Part shown: piece by piece, positions 3,001-9,000 of the stretch
How positions within the stretch are numbered: the stretch's first letter is position 1
Layout: every line of letters begins with the position of its first letter
Position numbers: made by a program
Source: Candidatus Eiseniibacteriota bacterium
GTDB taxonomy: Bacteria; Eisenbacteria; RBG-16-71-46; DASYSL01
Length of the DNA: 24,707 bases
Assembly: GCA_031431875.1 (NCBI GenBank)
Contig: JANPEF010000120.1
Span: 1-24,707, forward strand
Reading direction: 5' to 3'

Positions 3001-6000
3001 GGGCTCGCCCTGCGGCGCGGCCGGATCGGGCCAGGCCCAGAACTCGGTCCCGGCATCGGCGGCGCCAGTCGGATCGCGGACCACGACCTGCCAAAGCGCG
3101 AACGGCCCGGTGGCGACGACGATGTCGGTGGCCAGGCCGATCGCCGTGAGCGAGGCGAGCAGGTCGGAAGGCGTGGGCATGCCGGCATTGCTACGCGAAG
3201 GCAGGCGCTCGGCATCGCGGCCCAGCGCCTCGTTGGCGTTCGCATCGAGCCGGTCGACCCATGCCCCCGCGAACGCGGCCCGCGCCAGCGCACCGGCCAC
3301 GCGCGCCTGCAGCGAGTCGCCGCTCGCCCAGCCCTCGCGCGCGCGCTGTGCCCACGTGGCGAGCGAGTCGACGTCGGTGGCGACGTCCTCGACGATCAGA
3401 TCCTCGTCCTTCGGCGGATCGATGCCGTTGGAATGACAGCCGGCGAAGCCGGCCAGGGCGACGAGCAACGCAGCCGGGCCGGCCGCTTCCGCGAGTCCAC
3501 GCCGACGTCTCATCGCGCGCCTCCGGCGCCGGAAGGCGCAGGCGCCGGCTTCGCCGGCTTCAGATTTGCCGGGGCGTCGAGGCGCTCGATCAGCCAGCGC
3601 CCGTCGACGAACTTCATCTGCACGTCGATCATCTTGTCGCGGCGCGCGGCGGTGCCGTACTGGAAGCGCATGCGCTGGCGCCAGGGTCCGCCGGCGCCCT
3701 GCCCGAGCGTTTCCCACGACTCCGGCTCCTTGAACGTGCCGAGCTTGAGCGTGCGCGCCTTGGTCAGCACCGCCGGAGTGGTCACCAGCTCGCGGGCGAG
3801 AGTCGTCTGCGTCGTCTCCAGCGCGCGCAGGAACAGCACGAAGGTGGCGAAGGGCGACGGCAGCGTGCGCCGGTCGAGCACCACGAAGCCCGAGTCCGAG
3901 CGCTGCCAGATCCGCTCGGAGAGCAAGGGCGGCAGCTCGGGTCCCGGCCGGAAGCGTGCGTCGGGAGGCGACACGACCCAGGCGAGCAGTTCGGGTACAG
4001 CGTCGTCGTTCAGGTCCACGAAGCGCGCGTTGCCCCGTCCGCCCAGGTCCAGGTCGCGGCGCCCCGCTTGGACGATCCCCCAGAAGTCGGCCCGCGGCGA
4101 CATCCGCAGGAGCGTGAAGAAGGGTTCGCGCGTCTCGCCGGTGCGCCGGTGATCGATGAACCCGGCCTCGTACGGCGCCTCGGACTTGCCGGTCCACCAC
4201 ACCTCGAGCTGCATGCGTTTGCCCCCGGTCAGCAGCATGCGCTGATGACGCAGCTCGTCGCCGCGCCACCAGTACAGATAGGTGACCGCCGCGTAGCCGT
4301 CGAACGCAGGGTTGAAGAACGTCAGCGCGCAGAACTGGGGCAGCTCGGCGTCCTGCGCGAAGTCGGCCTTCACGCCGAGCGAGTCGAGAACGGTGAGCAC
4401 GCCGCGCGCGCCACGCATCGAGCGCGATCCGAGCGCGCCGAAGTACTTGCGGGCGACGTGATCGAAGTGATCGAACGCGGCGAGCTCGGTCGGGCCGACG
4501 GTATCGGACTTGGCGGGAGCGAGCAGCGCCAGGCCCTCGTCGGCCCACAGCTTGAGCGAGTCGACCGCGGGCGGACGCCAGGGCGTGGCCGGCACGGCGG
4601 TGCGCGGCTTCTCGTCGGCGGCGCGGATGGGTTCGGGCGCTGCGACGAGCGCGGCGCACGCCAGCAATGCGACCACGGCGGCCACGGGTGCGAGAACCCC
4701 GCGCCACGTCAGCGCACCTCGCCCATGAAGTCGCGTTGCACCAGGTCGCGCATCAGCAGCGCGTTGCGCGCCGCCTGCCCGGCGTGACAGTTGTTGAAGA
4801 AGACATAGACCTGGCGCGAGCGCTCGGCCAGTTCGCGGATCTTCCGCACCCATTCCGTGAGCTCCGCTGGCGAGTAGTCGTAGTCGTAGCGATCGCCCCC
4901 ACCGCGGCCCCACCAGGTCTTTTCGTTGCGACCGTGGAAGCGCACGTAGGCGATCGAGCCGGTGAGCCGCGCGACGGGCGGAACGAGCCCGGGGAGCGGC
5001 GGTTCATCGACGGAACAATAGCCGATGCCCCGTTCGTCGAGATACCGAAACACCCGCTCGTCGAGCCACGCGGCGTGCCGGAACTCGACGAACAGCGGCC
5101 CCCGCGCCGACAGCCGCTCGTGGAGCAGGTCGAGCCGCCGCCGCCCGGCCAGGTCCGGCCGGAACGCCCACGGAAACTGGAGCAGGACTCCGCGGTGCTT
5201 TCCGGCGGCGACCAGCGGGGCGAGGCAGTCGTCGAACGCCCGCCAGGTCGCTTCGGTGGGCTCGGCGGTCTCGTGGGTCATGGATTTGTGCGCCTTGACC
5301 AGGAACTCGAAGGCATCGGGCGTCCGCTCGACCAGCCCGGCCATGATTCTCGCCGGGGGGATGCCGTAGTACGTCGAGTTGATCTCGACCGCGTGGAAGC
5401 GCGTGGCATAGAAGCCGAGCATGTCGGCCTTCCGCGTCCGTTCGGGATAGAAGTTGCCGACCCAGTCGTCGAACGAAAAGCCCGACGTGCCGAGCGTGAT
5501 GGTGCCGAGGGCGGGAGCGGCGGACATCGCGGGCGCGGAGCTGGTGGCCACGGCCGGACTCACCGCAGCGCCCCGGCGCGCAGCACTGCCCGCTCGCCCC
5601 AGCGATCGCGCACCTGGTCGACGCCGCGCAGCAATCGGCGCGCCTTGCGATCGGCGATCAGCAGCCCCTCCTGCTCGACGCCACTCGCCCGCTCGAGCGC
5701 TCCGCAGGTCACGCCGATCAGCCGCACGGGCCTCGGCGCCAGGTTCTCGCGCAGGAGCTTGAGCGCGACGCGGTAGATCGTGCGGTCGTCGTCGACGTAC
5801 TCGGACAGCGCCCGCTGGCGGATCACGGTACTGAAATCGCTGTAGCGGATCTTCAGGACGACGATGCGCCCGCGGTAGTCCTCGCGCCGCATGCGCCGCG
5901 CCACCTGGTCGGCGAGCCGCAGCACCAGGCCCTCGAGCACGCTTGCCTCGCGCACGTCGGTGAGCAGCGTGAACTCGTGGCCCATCGACTTGGCATCGAC

Positions 6001-9000
6001 GCCCTCGTAATAGGGCACGACCGGGGTGGTGTCCTCGCCCCAGGCCGCGATCTTCATGCGCGGGCCATTGACGCCGAATGCAGCCGCCAACCGCGCCTCG
6101 GAGGCGTGTGCAAGATCGCCCACGCTGACCAGGCCCAGCCGTCCGAGCGCGGCGGCGGTCTGCTCACCAATTCCCCACAACGCGCCGACCGGCAGCGGCC
6201 ACCAGCGCCGGCGAAACGCGTCCTCGTCGAGATACGTGAGGCCGTGCGGCTTGACCACGCCCGCGGCCATCTTGGCGATCAGCTTGTTGGGCCCGATCCC
6301 GACCGAGGCGGAGAGCCCCAGCCGTTCGGCCACCCAACGCTGCACGGTGCGCCCCGCCTGCTCGGCCGCCGAGCGGCTGACGCCGTACGCGGTGCCGGAG
6401 AGGTCGAGGAACGCCTCGTCGATGCTGAACGGCTCGACCGCGGGCGTGATGCGCTTGTACAGCTCGAGCAGGTAGAGCGAGATCGAGCGGTACTTCTCGG
6501 GATCGCCCTCGACGAACACGCCGCCCGGGCACAGTCGGCGCGCCTCGCCCGTGGCCATGCCGGAGTGCACGCCGAATGCGCGCGCTTCGTACGACGCGGT
6601 GGCGACCGTGCCGCGGCGATCGGGATCGCCGCAGATGACGACCGGACGCCCCTTGAGGCGCGGGTTCGCCGCCTGTTCCACCGCGGCGAAGAACGCGTCC
6701 ATGTCGATGTGCAGGATCATGATGATTCCGCGCCTCGGGAGCGGGCGCCTGCCGGCGGCGGGTCCCCACCCGGATCGCACAGCATCCTCGTACCGTCCGA
6801 CAGGACGGCCCGACTCCCGAAGTCGCGGAACTCCCTAGGCCGGCGTGATGTCGATGGCTTCGAGCCGCTCGACCAGCCGCGACAACTGTCGCGGGCTGAC
6901 CGTGGCCATCGCGTAGCGATCGTTCCACGCCATGTGGCCGCCCAGCGCAACCCGCAGGTCGGGGCAGGCACGCAGCAGGGCCAGTGCGCTGCGGCCCTTC
7001 AGTTCGCGCACCACCGACGCGGCGAGCTGCGACGGACGGAGGCTGACGACGAGTCGGATCTGCGTCGGCGTGATCGCCACCCCCTGGAGCTGGAGGCCGC
7101 GCTCGCGGCACAGGTCCTCGAGGATCGAGCGCAGTGCCTGCCCACGCTTGCCCGTGAGCACCGGCGCCTTGCCGCGCGTCGACCAGGTGAGCTGGTAGTG
7201 CAGGCGGGCGATGCAGACCGGCTGCCACGCCCCATCGGCGGGACGGCGATCGAGCGAACGCACGAGCGGGAACGACGGGGTCGGAAGGCTGAGCGCGAAC
7301 GTGGACATGATCGACTCCTCTCGGTGGCGCGGGGGCCACTGTGCTGCTGCGTGATCATTTGTGCAGTCGCCGGTCATTTTGAAGGAGCGCCCGCAAGCGC
7401 TCCCGCGACACCCCGAACCTTACGGGCGGGGTGGGACCGAATCGTTTTCAGCTAGGTGCGGCGCGATCCTCCGGGCGGACGGACGAGGCCGACGACCACG
7501 CCCAGCACGCGGAAATCATCGTCGGGGCCGACGTGACGGACTTCGAAATCGGGGTTCTCGGGCACCAGGTCGAAGCCCCGCGCGGTGCGCCGGAACGTCT
7601 TCACGGTGGCATCCTCGCCGAGCAGCGCGACCACGGCGTCGCCGTCGCGCGCATGCTCCTGCTGGTGCACGACGACGAGGTCGCCGGGCAGGATCCCGCG
7701 ATCGCGCATGCTCAGGCCCTGCACGCGCAGGGCGAAGAGATCGCTACCGTTGCCGAACAGGTCCTCGATCGCGAGGTCGCCCTCGTGGTCTTCCTGGGCC
7801 TCGATCGGCACGCCGGCCGCGATGCGACCGAGAATCCGGATGCCCCCGGAAGCGCGATCGGCGACGCGGTCGCCGTGCTCGACGCGGTCGCCGCGTTCCG
7901 AGCCGCGCGCGGCGAAGGGGCGCACGAACGTCGCGCGCTCGACACCGGTCGCATCGTTGGGCACGACCAGCACCTGCACGCCGCGCGACTTGCGATCCGT
8001 ACGGCGGATATAGCCCGCGTCCTCGAGCACGCGCAGGTGGTGGCGCACGCCATTCGTCGAGCTGATGCCGAACTCCTCGCCGATCTCGCGCATGGTCGGC
8101 GCCGAGCCCTGCTCCTGACTGCGCCGGAAGATGAAGCTGTGAATGGCGCGGGTCTTGTCGTTGATCATGTCGGGCTCCCCTCGACGACGGCTGCAACGTG
8201 CGACGCGCGGTCTCGACCGCGAAGACGGGAGAACGCTAAGTGCACGGGTGTGCAGCGGTCAAGGGATTTTTGTGCAGGTCCGGGAGGGAGTGGTCGAGGT
8301 GGGGTGTCGGGGCGGGCCGGGCGGGCGGGGTCGATCTGACGGCGCTGGTTCAAGATGGAACATGAGAGGCGAATCAACTTGCTGCGCAGCAAGTCGTCGG
8401 GCCGGCCAGGAGGATCGACTGGTCCCGGGACCGGTGATTTGGTGCCGGCTCCGCGCCCGGACTGCCCGACTCACATGCGCTGGAGCATGTGGACTTGCAC
8501 ATCCGCGCGGCTGGAACCGGCACGACGCCGCACCTCGTGCACGGCTCGCCGGCGGACGGCTGCCCCCGAGGCCACGATCCTTCGTCGCTCCACCGACGCG
8601 CACCGTCGACCGGTCGACGATTTTCGCGTGCGCGCCCACCAACAGATGCTGCGCGCCGAAACAGAAGTGCGCCACGAACACGCTGCAGGACAAGCGCATC
8701 CCGCGCTCGAGAGCAGAACCGCGGCGGCACCGATCAGGCTGGCACATCGATTGCAAATGCATCGGAATGTCGGCGGCACGAGCTTCGGCCCGCATCGTCG
8801 ACAGACAGGTGGTGTGGGGAGGGTGCCCCGGGGCTGACCGCTATCGGGGGCCGGTGCGGCCATAGGACGCTCACCCCCACCACCTTCTTGCGTCGCCGAC
8901 TTCGATCGCCCCGCCCCACATTCGGTTTTCGCAACCGTTCGATTCAACCCCTCTCGCACCTCTCCGCCGCCATTTCGGACATCCTGTGCGGCAACGCGCA

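Follow-up and report, generated by a model that had tools for sequence, protein, structure and literature searches.

The locus studied here raises the question of why a gene for an IS200/IS605-type transposase homolog stands directly behind lexA, and what its product could do there. The window, that is, the whole stretch of 24,707 nucleotides analysed from a Candidatus Eiseniibacteriota contig (JANPEF010000120.1), carries lexA, the gene in question (hereafter the Y1 gene), dinB and a DUF72 gene, all on the minus strand (Table 1), and the genes, coordinates and CTGCACAAA counts are as the genome-wide survey's note had given them. In the lineage of the window, the Y1 gene is the first in a same-strand run that continues through dinB, lying 114 nt past the Y1 stop codon, and DUF72, the start of which overlaps the dinB stop by 4 nt, to a MrfA-like helicase gene farther on. 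No box of its own was found for dinB in the window. A single RNA run contained any of the stretch, as one contig of 273 nt inside lexA.

Table 1. Features of the lexA–Y1 locus (positions in the window)
Feature	Position	Strand	Basis or remark
lexA, 238 aa	7452..8168	-	Pfam Peptidase_S24 E 1e-28; LexA_DNA_bind E 4.5e-15
TnpA-fold (Y1_Tnp) gene, 157 aa, P0001, without Tyr and HUH	6835..7308	-	Pfam E 1.2e-15
dinB (Pol IV)	5560..6720	-	Pfam IMS E 4.6e-46; IMS_C
DUF72 gene	4709..5563	-	Pfam DUF72 E 4e-64
lexA operator, perfect TGCAC-ACCC-GTGCA	8241..8254	.	one of 5 perfect genomic sites
Half-site TGCAC-AAAA-ATCCC (CTGCACAAA copy 5′ of the lexA -35), distinct from the main operator	8269..8277	-	sequence
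Hairpin GGGAGCGC-TTGCG-GGCGCTCC after lexA	7384..7404	-	place of the relatives' intrinsic terminator
Operator-like box of the Y1 gene, TGCAC-AAAT-GATCA	7352..7365	-	sequence and relatives' loci
Codons Q83-I84-R85, His-u-His place	7054..7062	-	alignment to ISDra2 H67-V68-H69
Codon R148, catalytic Tyr place (ISDra2 Y132)	6865..6867	-	ungapped HMMER alignments
Codon Y132, invariant structural Tyr of WxxxY, beta-4	6913..6915	-	aligns to ISDra2 Y116

The descent of the Y1 protein from an IS200/IS605 TnpA is evident at the levels of both profile and fold. It scores 58.1 bits with Pfam Y1_Tnp (cut-off 23) and 59.4 bits with the NCBIfam IS200/IS605 equivalog (cut-off 55), and ISDra2 TnpA is matched by profile at E 4.7e-22. 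The AF2 model (pLDDT 85.2) contains the TnpA fold of a four-stranded sheet with helices and a C-terminal helix; Foldseek matches it to ISDra2 TnpA at E 1.3e-11, and ranks 1-30 of that search are occupied only by IS200/IS605 TnpA or RAYT structures or chains. The protein probably also retains the TnpA-type dimer, as its ESMFold2 homodimer score was 0.72 against 0.47 for the best control. It thereby passed a mark that 20 of 30 homodimers and 1 of 23 single chains of solved structure attained, a pass that may reflect resemblance to the TnpA dimers already solved. At least 97% of the contacts were common to the runs, the partner pLDDT was 86, and the predicted interface runs along strands 30-38 and 130-139.

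The residues through which a TnpA cuts DNA have been lost. The survey's note had read the His-u-His motif as missing, and this is borne out by the alignment of ISDra2 PDHVHLL to PTQIRLV, which leaves Q83-I84-R85 at its place. The same note had the catalytic tyrosine retained, in WNPSY, and this did not hold: the WNPSY tyrosine corresponds to ISDra2 Y116, and the catalytic Y132 of ISDra2 (in QKYIESQ, on the C-terminal helix) aligns without gaps to R148. The window protein's own Y132 was accordingly rejected as the catalytic residue; it is the structural tyrosine of the beta-4 WxxxY motif, on model strand 128-137 and inside the predicted dimer interface. That Y132 is the catalytic residue of ISDra2 is marked by the title ('Y132F mutant') and the chain sequence (QKFIESQ) of PDB entry 2xo6, which by its title holds this mutant in complex with left-end DNA; by analogy, a TnpA without the tyrosine can still hold DNA. 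Among 89 relatives, the column of ISDra2 Y132 is occupied by Arg in 83 and by Lys in 3, and 83 have no tyrosine anywhere past the beta-4 strand. At the place of ISDra2 Q136, the Gln four residues past the tyrosine, the window protein has L152.

How widely the two motifs are lost differs. The survey's note had counted Q-V/I-R/K in 13 of 15 relatives, a sample that consisted of close kin; order-wide, the pattern Q-[VI]-[RK] occurs in 7 of 94 sequences, and the others read H-x-H (81), RVH (5) or HVN (1). Judged from these alignments, HUH was lost in the window's family (f1) and its sister family f2 and not in the family at large. The nearest outgroup representatives read (P0016, P0022, P0028, P0029, P0030, P0034 and P0036) all keep both H-x-H and the tyrosine, and the loss is therefore derived. 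Loss of the catalytic tyrosine belongs to the family as a whole, and the window protein lacks both motifs.

The gene has been retained in spite of these losses. Within one Candidatus Eisenbacteria order, 94 of 102 genomes of 32 genera carry it, nearly always in single copy, and weak, ordinary matches occur in 4 of 104 other genomes of the phylum beyond the order. Of the eight genomes without it, five were checked; four have no lexA match and the fifth has its lexA cut by a contig end. The window genome, 98.45% complete, has one PF01797 match, so the gene is single-copy as the survey had reported, and the adjacency to lexA is stronger than reported: every one of the 93 genomes whose contig includes the flank has lexA immediately 5′ of the gene and in the same orientation. 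Judged by copy number and site, the gene is not part of a mobile element, there being one genomic copy at the same locus in 93 of 93 genomes. The pairwise identities of LexA and of the Y1 protein run in parallel (Spearman 0.83; 3486 pairs, 84 genomes). In eight pairs among the copies without HUH, dN/dS was 0.09-0.45 (0.09-0.34 without the most distant pair), compared with 0.11-0.45 for lexA in the same pairs. Therefore, the Y1 gene is under purifying selection. Relatives also maintain its ribosome-binding site, its operator and its length, which is mostly 152-158 aa. The survey's idea of an exapted, immobile protein of IS200/IS605 TnpA fold, fixed beside lexA as a core gene of the order, is upheld by its single copy, its synteny and the tracking of LexA identity.

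Whether the family still cuts DNA by another chemistry has to be weighed first. The protein might be a metal-dependent hydrolytic nuclease for single-stranded DNA, in which HUH is kept, Arg has replaced Tyr and water performs the cut without a covalent link, the window copy being secondarily inactivated or re-purposed; we regard this as possible but rather unlikely. H-x-H is kept by most of the family though the tyrosine is gone throughout, which argues for selection on the metal site, and the near-invariance of the Arg at the tyrosine place would suit such an enzyme. However, we know of no HUH enzyme that functions without the tyrosine. In the motif descriptions of the survey PMC6006769, all its classes carry both the HuH and the Y motif, and the Gln four residues past the tyrosine, there assigned to the metal site, is Leu in the present family. 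Moreover, the copies without HUH are still under purifying selection, so that a function shared throughout the family does not depend on the metal site. That most relatives keep His-u-His nevertheless argues that this site still matters to them, and the description as a pure binder may fit the window lineage only.

The second part of the question concerns regulation. The survey's note had drawn attention to CTGCACAAA, and its counts stand, with 7 copies in 3.75 Mb, four of them before lexA, the Y1 gene, recA and a cassette in which an unknown ORF is joined by an IMS and a DnaE2-like gene. However, CTGCACAAA covers just the left arm and spacer of the actual box, a 14-bp palindrome, TGCAC-N4-GTGCA, which in its perfect form has only 5 sites in the 3.75-Mb genome, one of them before this cassette. 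In relatives, the perfect palindrome precedes lexA at 89 of 92 loci, lies within 1.5 kb before an ImuB-like gene in 21 of 30 and stands before mraZ in 26 of 30, and 26 of 30 recA promoters contain a variant. The lexA operator of the window is flanked by a -35 (TTGACC, 8257-8262) and a -10 element (TAGCGT, 8233-8238), and in one relative (L015) a scan calls a promoter around it. Imperfect second sites like the half-site upstream of the lexA -35 occur in some relatives.

The usual placement of Eisenbacteria is close to the Fibrobacteres-Chlorobi-Bacteroidetes group, and the LexA box of Fibrobacter succinogenes, reportedly described by Mazon and colleagues in 2004, is TGCNC-N4-GTGCA. The palindrome before lexA has the same arms and spacing as that box, the Eisenbacteria motif being derived solely from comparative genomics.

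The copy that the survey had assigned to the Y1 gene itself appears, from sequence comparison, to be a LexA-type box conserved among relatives as a variant. It has two mismatches to the palindrome in the window; the common form in relatives is TGCAC-N4-GTTCA, and the site ends about 25 nt (median) upstream of the start codon. Of 93 loci from relatives, 75 have GTTCA as the right arm, 7 GTGCA, 3 GTACA and 3, like the window, GATCA, and the pattern TGCAC-N4-G[TA][TGA]CA precedes the gene in 90. A candidate LexA (SOS) operator in the promoter region of the Y1 gene is thus conserved in related genomes. It overlaps a weak -10-like hexamer (AATGAT, 7354-7359), 18 nt upstream of which lies a -35-like TTCAAA (7378-7383), both by manual reading. 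A consensus scan of the window found no sigma-70 promoter between lexA and the Y1 gene, so that read-through from lexA may occur. In the window, the T-run of the hairpin after lexA is weak and no terminator was called; relatives have CGGGAGC...GCTCCCG followed by TTTTT before the Y1 operator, called as a terminator in L015.

These features also bear on the proposal that the box is no LexA operator but belongs to a promoter or is bound by some other factor, and that the gene is expressed by read-through or constitutively and is not itself damage-induced. The right arm is usually GTTCA instead of GTGCA, the spacer is constrained (consensus TGCACAt.tGTTCA) as expected for an overlapping -10, and the window site scores below 14 bits with a matrix derived from the lexA sites in other genomes, a threshold passed by five genomic sites, neither the Y1 nor the recA site among them. 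Nevertheless, we consider this proposal unlikely, as 86 of the 93 loci share the left arm TGCAC and the 4-nt spacing with the lexA operator, and the arm variants are common to both contexts, GTGCA occurring before Y1 in 7 loci and GTTCA/TGAAC before lexA in 2. In most relatives, an intrinsic terminator separates lexA from the box, and the Y1 gene therefore needs a promoter of its own; even read-through from lexA would fall under LexA control.

The neighborhood could alternatively mean that the protein regulates or partners the SOS machinery, for instance LexA, RecA or a translesion polymerase, instead of binding DNA structures. The linkage to lexA everywhere would agree with such a role, as would the arrangement in f1 and f2, where the gene is followed by a DUF6504-dinB or dinB cassette. 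However, dinB is adjacent in just 13 of 94 genomes, confined to f1 and f2, in keeping with the survey's remark that this adjacency is not conserved; and at f3 loci the next gene is convergent in 10 of 10 examined, so that the module there ends with the Y1 gene. We regard a partner of this kind as distinctly improbable. That the gene is a decaying IS relic which landed behind lexA and has no present function is very unlikely indeed: the window copy lacks both catalytic motifs, and f2 includes one copy with an in-frame stop and shortened copies of about 118 aa ending immediately past RLW, which show that the C-terminal part can be lost, but the gene is open and single across the order, its dN/dS is as low as that of lexA, its ribosome-binding site, operator and length are maintained, and a conserved pentapeptide closes the C-terminus of 76 of 77 f3 proteins.

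Compared with known systems, the Y1 protein shares fold, size and order of secondary structure with IS200/IS605 TnpA (ISDra2, 2xm3/2xo6; IS608, 2vju; IS200, 2f4f), as well as the predicted dimer through beta-1 and beta-4, and NCBIfam would give it the same name. It differs in the Arg for Tyr, the missing Gln at +4 and, in the window copy, the missing His-u-His, and its gene is fixed as one copy beside lexA order-wide, with no repeated ends found in the hairpin check described below. RAYT/TnpA-REP proteins (Escherichia coli YafM, PDB 4er8; Foldseek E 6.4e-06 to the Y1 model) are likewise domesticated, single-copy Y1-fold proteins retained by the host. The RAYT model NF047646 gave no match for the window protein and matched relatives at E 2e-07 with 26-31 bits, below its cut-off of 80. 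According to the motif descriptions in PMC6006769, RAYTs keep HUH and the tyrosine in a Y---NP context, whereas the Y1 family is without the tyrosine. RAYTs also have REP hairpins, present in high copy number, on their flanks. For the Y1 protein no DNA target was found. The hairpins beside its gene resemble terminators, and the one tested, a long hairpin 3′ of the gene in genus g20, has a single occurrence in each of three genomes, with one unrelated match in a fourth and none in a fifth; no genome-wide repeat search was made in the window's own genome. The imuA-imuB-dnaE2 cassettes resemble the Y1 gene as conserved lineage sets behind a LexA box, but the Y1 product derives from a transposase and contains neither a polymerase nor a repair domain.

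Based on these findings, we propose that the Y1 gene descends from an IS200/IS605 tnpA that became fixed in the host and could no longer support transposition by known chemistry, and that in one Candidatus Eisenbacteria order it forms with lexA a two-gene module that is inherited as a unit. Given the LexA-type operator just 5′ of its ribosome-binding site, LexA most likely represses the gene, and DNA damage would switch it on. The protein, given its fold and predicted TnpA-like dimer, most likely binds single-stranded or hairpin DNA, and would do so as a dimer and without cutting. Taken as a whole, this account of a host-fixed, non-transposing, LexA-regulated binder of single-stranded or hairpin DNA lies, in our judgment, slightly on the probable side. 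The literature searched contained no paper linking a Y1/IS200-type protein to a LexA regulon. With its cutting motifs lost, the gene conserved and a LexA-type site of its own, the Y1 gene is therefore probably an undescribed part of the DNA-damage response of this lineage.

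In the window, contig C120 of a 3.75-Mb, 70%-GC metagenome-assembled genome, the genes lexA, Y1 (a descendant of the IS200/IS605 transposase TnpA), dinB and DUF72 form a consecutive run on a single strand, as listed in the table. PF01797 matches once in this genome, at the Y1 gene itself, and silencing of related IS copies by the Y1 protein is ruled out, as the genome has no other Y1 gene.

Genes of the lexA region and the left end of the window
Feature	Position	Strand
lexA	7452-8168	minus
Y1_Tnp homologue, 157 aa (Y1 gene)	6835-7308	minus
dinB	5560-6720	minus
DUF72 gene	4709-5563	minus
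MrfA-like DEAD/HRQ1 helicase, cut by the left end of the window	3-2285	

The Y1 protein has the fold of IS200/IS605 TnpA: its AF2 model has a pLDDT of 85.2, the first 30 Foldseek matches are all TnpA or RAYT chains, with the ISDra2 TnpA at the top (E 1.3e-11), and a profile matches the ISDra2 TnpA at E 4.7e-22. The genome-wide survey's note had claimed that the protein lost the metal-binding His-u-His (HUH) motif and kept the catalytic Tyr. The first claim holds, with Q83-I84-R85 aligning to H67-V68-H69 of ISDra2, and the second arose from a register error, since the Tyr of WNPSY corresponds to ISDra2 residue 116 in strand beta-4. The catalytic Y132 of ISDra2 sits sixteen residues further on, in QKYIESQH, and the chain of PDB 2xo6, titled 'Y132F mutant', reads QKFIESQ, departing from wild type precisely at the Y132 place. 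HMMER aligns the ISDra2 catalytic stretch without gaps to the family's 'vreRlralH', which pairs ISDra2 Y132 with the window protein's R148 and its Gln at +4 with a Leu. Among 89 aligned relatives, this column holds Arg in 83 and Lys in 3, and 83 have no Tyr anywhere after beta-4. The invariant Y132 of the window protein itself is the structural Tyr, placed by the model in strand 128-137 and also part of the predicted dimer interface.

A phylogenomic survey of the superfamily gives the HuH and Y motifs as common to all classes (PMC6006769). Seven proteins, the nearest outgroup representatives read (P0016, P0022, P0028, P0029, P0030, P0034 and P0036), keep both H-x-H and Tyr, the latter within a Y---Q context in five cases, and the loss in the Y1 family is therefore derived. 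Additionally, the Y1 protein scores 0.72 as an ESMFold2 homodimer (pLDDT 86) versus 0.47 for the best control, a mark that 20 of 30 solved homodimers attained, as did 1 of 23 solved single chains; at least 97% of contacts are shared between runs, and the interface lies in strands 30-38 and 130-139. This pass may only show likeness to TnpA dimers, which are solved.

Of the GTDB order's 102 genomes, 94 carry the Y1 gene, in single copy except for one genome, G032, which has three, and a profile search of the phylum (206 genomes) returned the same 94 carriers, with only four weak matches of ordinary Y1 type (E 1e-10 to 1e-14) among the 104 genomes outside the order. By GTDB ranks, the gene is order-wide and not phylum-wide. 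Among the 1.84 billion representatives of a protein library, E values below 1e-30 were limited to five proteins, two full-length (one like family f3 of the order, one like the window's own family f1) and three fragments, after which the scores drop to ordinary transposases. A pattern scan of a genome collection with the family alignment matched MAGs of this group only, and the single window protein found 2 loci there.

All 94 loci were fetched for the synteny counts, and lexA lies directly upstream of the Y1 gene on the same strand in 93 of 93 genomes with the flank on the contig, G006 being untestable as a contig end cuts its flank. Five of the eight genomes without the Y1 gene were checked: four also lack a lexA match, and the fifth has a lexA cut by a contig end. 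Pairwise identities of LexA and of the Y1 protein correlate (Spearman 0.83; 3486 pairs, 84 genomes), and the pattern is one of vertical co-inheritance rather than repeated insertion. The additional copies of G032 are two extra lexA-Y1 modules, L037 (G032:C6) and L038 (G032:C7), with lexA parts broken by frame changes and Y1 parts that retain HVH and the box.

At the HUH place, the 94 sequences read HVH (73), HIH (4), HLH (2), HAH (2), RVH (5), Q-[VI]-[RK] (7) and HVN (1), and they fall by family into three states. Family f3 has the gene in 81 of 89 genomes and keeps H-x-H, bar two sporadic RVH; the next gene was convergent in 10 of 10 loci examined, so the module ends with the Y1 gene there. 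In f1 the gene is present in 9 of 9 genomes, where genera g1 and g4 read Q-[VI]-[RK] and g2 and g3 read RVH (g4 being represented by one unpublished genome, G009); its proteins have a longer N-terminus and no f3-type tail, and dinB follows the gene. Family f2 has it in 3 of 3 genomes, reads R-L-D or H-V-N, is likewise followed by dinB, and encodes proteins that end right after RLW, with beta-4 and the last helix missing. HUH loss coincides with dinB adjacency in 13 genomes, versus 2 sporadic RVH among f3, which amounts to at most a few events, so that no statistics were drawn. The HUH-less copies are, judged by substitution rates, still under purifying selection, with a dN/dS of 0.09-0.45 in eight f1 pairs versus 0.11-0.45 for lexA of the same pairs.

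The C-terminus of f3 proteins reads [LFWM]-A-x-A-[SGC] in 76 of 77 cases and is absent from the window's protein. It resembles the tmRNA tag of the window's genome, ANTQMAMAA (G000 contig C50:9990-10353), with its ending MAMAA, and by this resemblance only it may hint at a degradation tag and controlled proteolysis. LexA length differs as well: the window's LexA (238 aa) has a linker insert of ~35-40 residues relative to the f3 relatives, seen as gaps in tblastn alignments; their lexA genes are ~590-630 nt long, equivalent to some 200 aa. Between the Y1 gene and dinB, a conserved DUF6504 gene of 83 aa lies in g2-g4 and f2 (loci L010:1917-2168, L033:3896-4150, L008 and L009; the g4 case is that of G009), with Pfam matches of E 4e-05 and 4.5e-06, at or just over the cut-off; the window's genus does not have it (6721-6834), and no paper on DUF6504 was found in the literature searched. 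A non-coding stretch before dinB, GGATGCTGTGCGATCCGGGTGGGGACCC (window 6751-6790, minus strand), is conserved in g1 and g4 and does not match the LexA-type box.

The survey's note had counted 7 genomic copies of CTGCACAAA, four of them before lexA, the Y1 gene, recA and the imu cassette (an unknown ORF with IMS and DnaE2-like genes); the count stands, and the motif turns out to be only part of the box, namely the left arm and spacer of a 14-bp palindrome, TGCAC-N4-GTGCA. This palindrome, which we take to resemble the published Fibrobacter LexA box, occurs in perfect form five times in the 3.75 Mb, three times between genes: before lexA, before the imu cassette, and between mraZ and a methyltransferase gene. 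Across the relatives, the perfect box, with TTGAC on one side and a TAnnnT hexamer on the other, precedes lexA in 89 of 92 loci. It lies within 1.5 kb 5' of an ImuB-like gene in 21 of 30 loci, and for mraZ the distance is 150-250 nt in 26 of 30, with 3 more at one mismatch. The promoter of recA has a conserved variant, CTGC[AC]CAAATGTGTA, that extends into the -10 in 26 of 30 loci; three loci lack it and one further locus has too short a flank. A strict lexA-derived matrix recovers lexA, the imu cassette, mraZ and two coding sites, and misses recA and the Y1 gene.

The mraZ box of the window's genome (G000 contig C153:34643-34656, L210:1644-1657) lies between mraZ, the head of the division and cell-wall cluster, and a divergent class-I methyltransferase gene, and it may link SOS to cell division through MraZ. 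The imu cassette shares one perfect-box region with a divergent gene (L209:665-1465, G000 contig C55) that matches the UDG superfamily weakly (E 2.7e-04, below the cut-off). About 25 genomes of the order have a recA whose match is split in two (residues 1-211 and about 208-357) within one open frame of 580-900 aa (e.g., G075:C1:3398733-3400871 and G096:C24:28275-30389), the pattern expected of an in-frame insert such as a putative intein; recA of the window's genome is uninterrupted.

In the relatives, the lexA-Y1 spacer is uniformly built and holds, in order, the lexA terminator (CGGGAGC-loop-GCTCCCG-TTTTT), ~13 nt, TGCAC-N4-GTTCA, a conserved CCCCGC-AGGAGG, and the Y1 start codon ~25 nt past the box; in locus L015 a scan called the lexA hairpin as a terminator. 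Over 93 loci, the right arm at the Y1 site is GTTCA in 75, GTGCA in 7, and GTACA and GATCA in 3 each, the last being the window and its two closest kin. A GTTCA or TGAAC arm also occurs in two lexA operators, and with arm variants common to both, the Y1 and lexA sites are read as one operator class. On our own reading, the G-to-T change would supply the last T of a weak -10 hexamer (T-n-T-G-T-T in relatives; in the window AATGAT, 18 nt past TTCAAA), which would explain why the GTTCA variant is fixed. A scan for consensus promoters and terminators over window 6700-8420 found none, the 114 nt from the Y1 stop to dinB showed no called terminator and no box, and no Rfam family matched in 5000-9000 at E up to 1. 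The only RNA run with any matching words, X20 (share 0.07), yielded one 273-nt contig within lexA, plus 35-nt scraps from other organisms, and nothing from the Y1 gene.

The spacer folds ordinarily (z -0.95), and a REP-like reading of the hairpins was not favoured: the upstream one is the terminator with its T-run, its stem varying by compensating changes in some genera, and the downstream one, examined as the genus-g20 stem, does not recur within any genome searched for it. In f3, the long hairpins 10-90 nt after the Y1 stop (z below -2 in 35 of 79 cases) are GC-rich with stems of 12-18 bp and loops of ~25 nt, differ in sequence between genera, and are probably terminators between convergent genes.

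Without the catalytic Tyr, no covalent 5'-phosphotyrosine intermediate can form and thus no IS200-type transposition can proceed; a TnpA lacking this Tyr can nonetheless hold its hairpin DNA, as the Y132F-DNA complex 2xo6 shows. The window's lineage, also lacking the metal site, is left with the fold and the predicted dimer. For regulation and activity alike, we infer that the Y1 protein would bind single-stranded or hairpin DNA, with its gene repressed by LexA and induced on damage, and in f1 its gene would be transcribed ahead of dinB. Above all, the binder role does not explain why H-x-H persists in f3, where the protein may instead act hydrolytically or bind in a metal-dependent way. A fuller scenario, which we consider rather unlikely as a whole, would make this tyrosine-less HUH-fold family a dedicated SOS effector of the order, induced on LexA cleavage to bind hairpins or ssDNA at damaged forks; most lineages would still use His-u-His, possibly for nicking with water, a C-terminal tag would keep the protein short-lived, and in the window's lineage it would have lost both metal site and tag, its gene now heading a damage operon with Pol IV.

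Domesticated transposases are uncommon in prokaryotes, and RAYT, the best-known case, is still catalytically active, whereas the Y1 fold here is without its nucleophile and, in the window's lineage, without its metal site. The literature found on domesticated Y1 transposases is RAYT work, and the searches made turned up no description of the Y1 feature, no paper combining Eisenbacteria with LexA, none linking IS200-type proteins to a LexA box bar an unrelated cyanobacterial review, and nothing pertinent on LexA regulons.

In conclusion, the Y1 feature is real and conserved, the earlier observation is confirmed in part and its interpretation supported in part, and the Y1 fold has been kept through the whole history of the order as a fixed neighbour of lexA behind a LexA-type box. 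For an uncultured phylum, the work provides a candidate LexA box together with an initial outline of its regulon (lexA, recA, imu cassette, mraZ, Y1 gene). If confirmed, the proposed role would bring a new type of protein into the SOS response, offer a natural 'binding-only' HUH scaffold, and serve as a warning that a host gene is misread in automatic annotation, as the protein scores above NCBI's IS200/IS605 equivalog cut-off.
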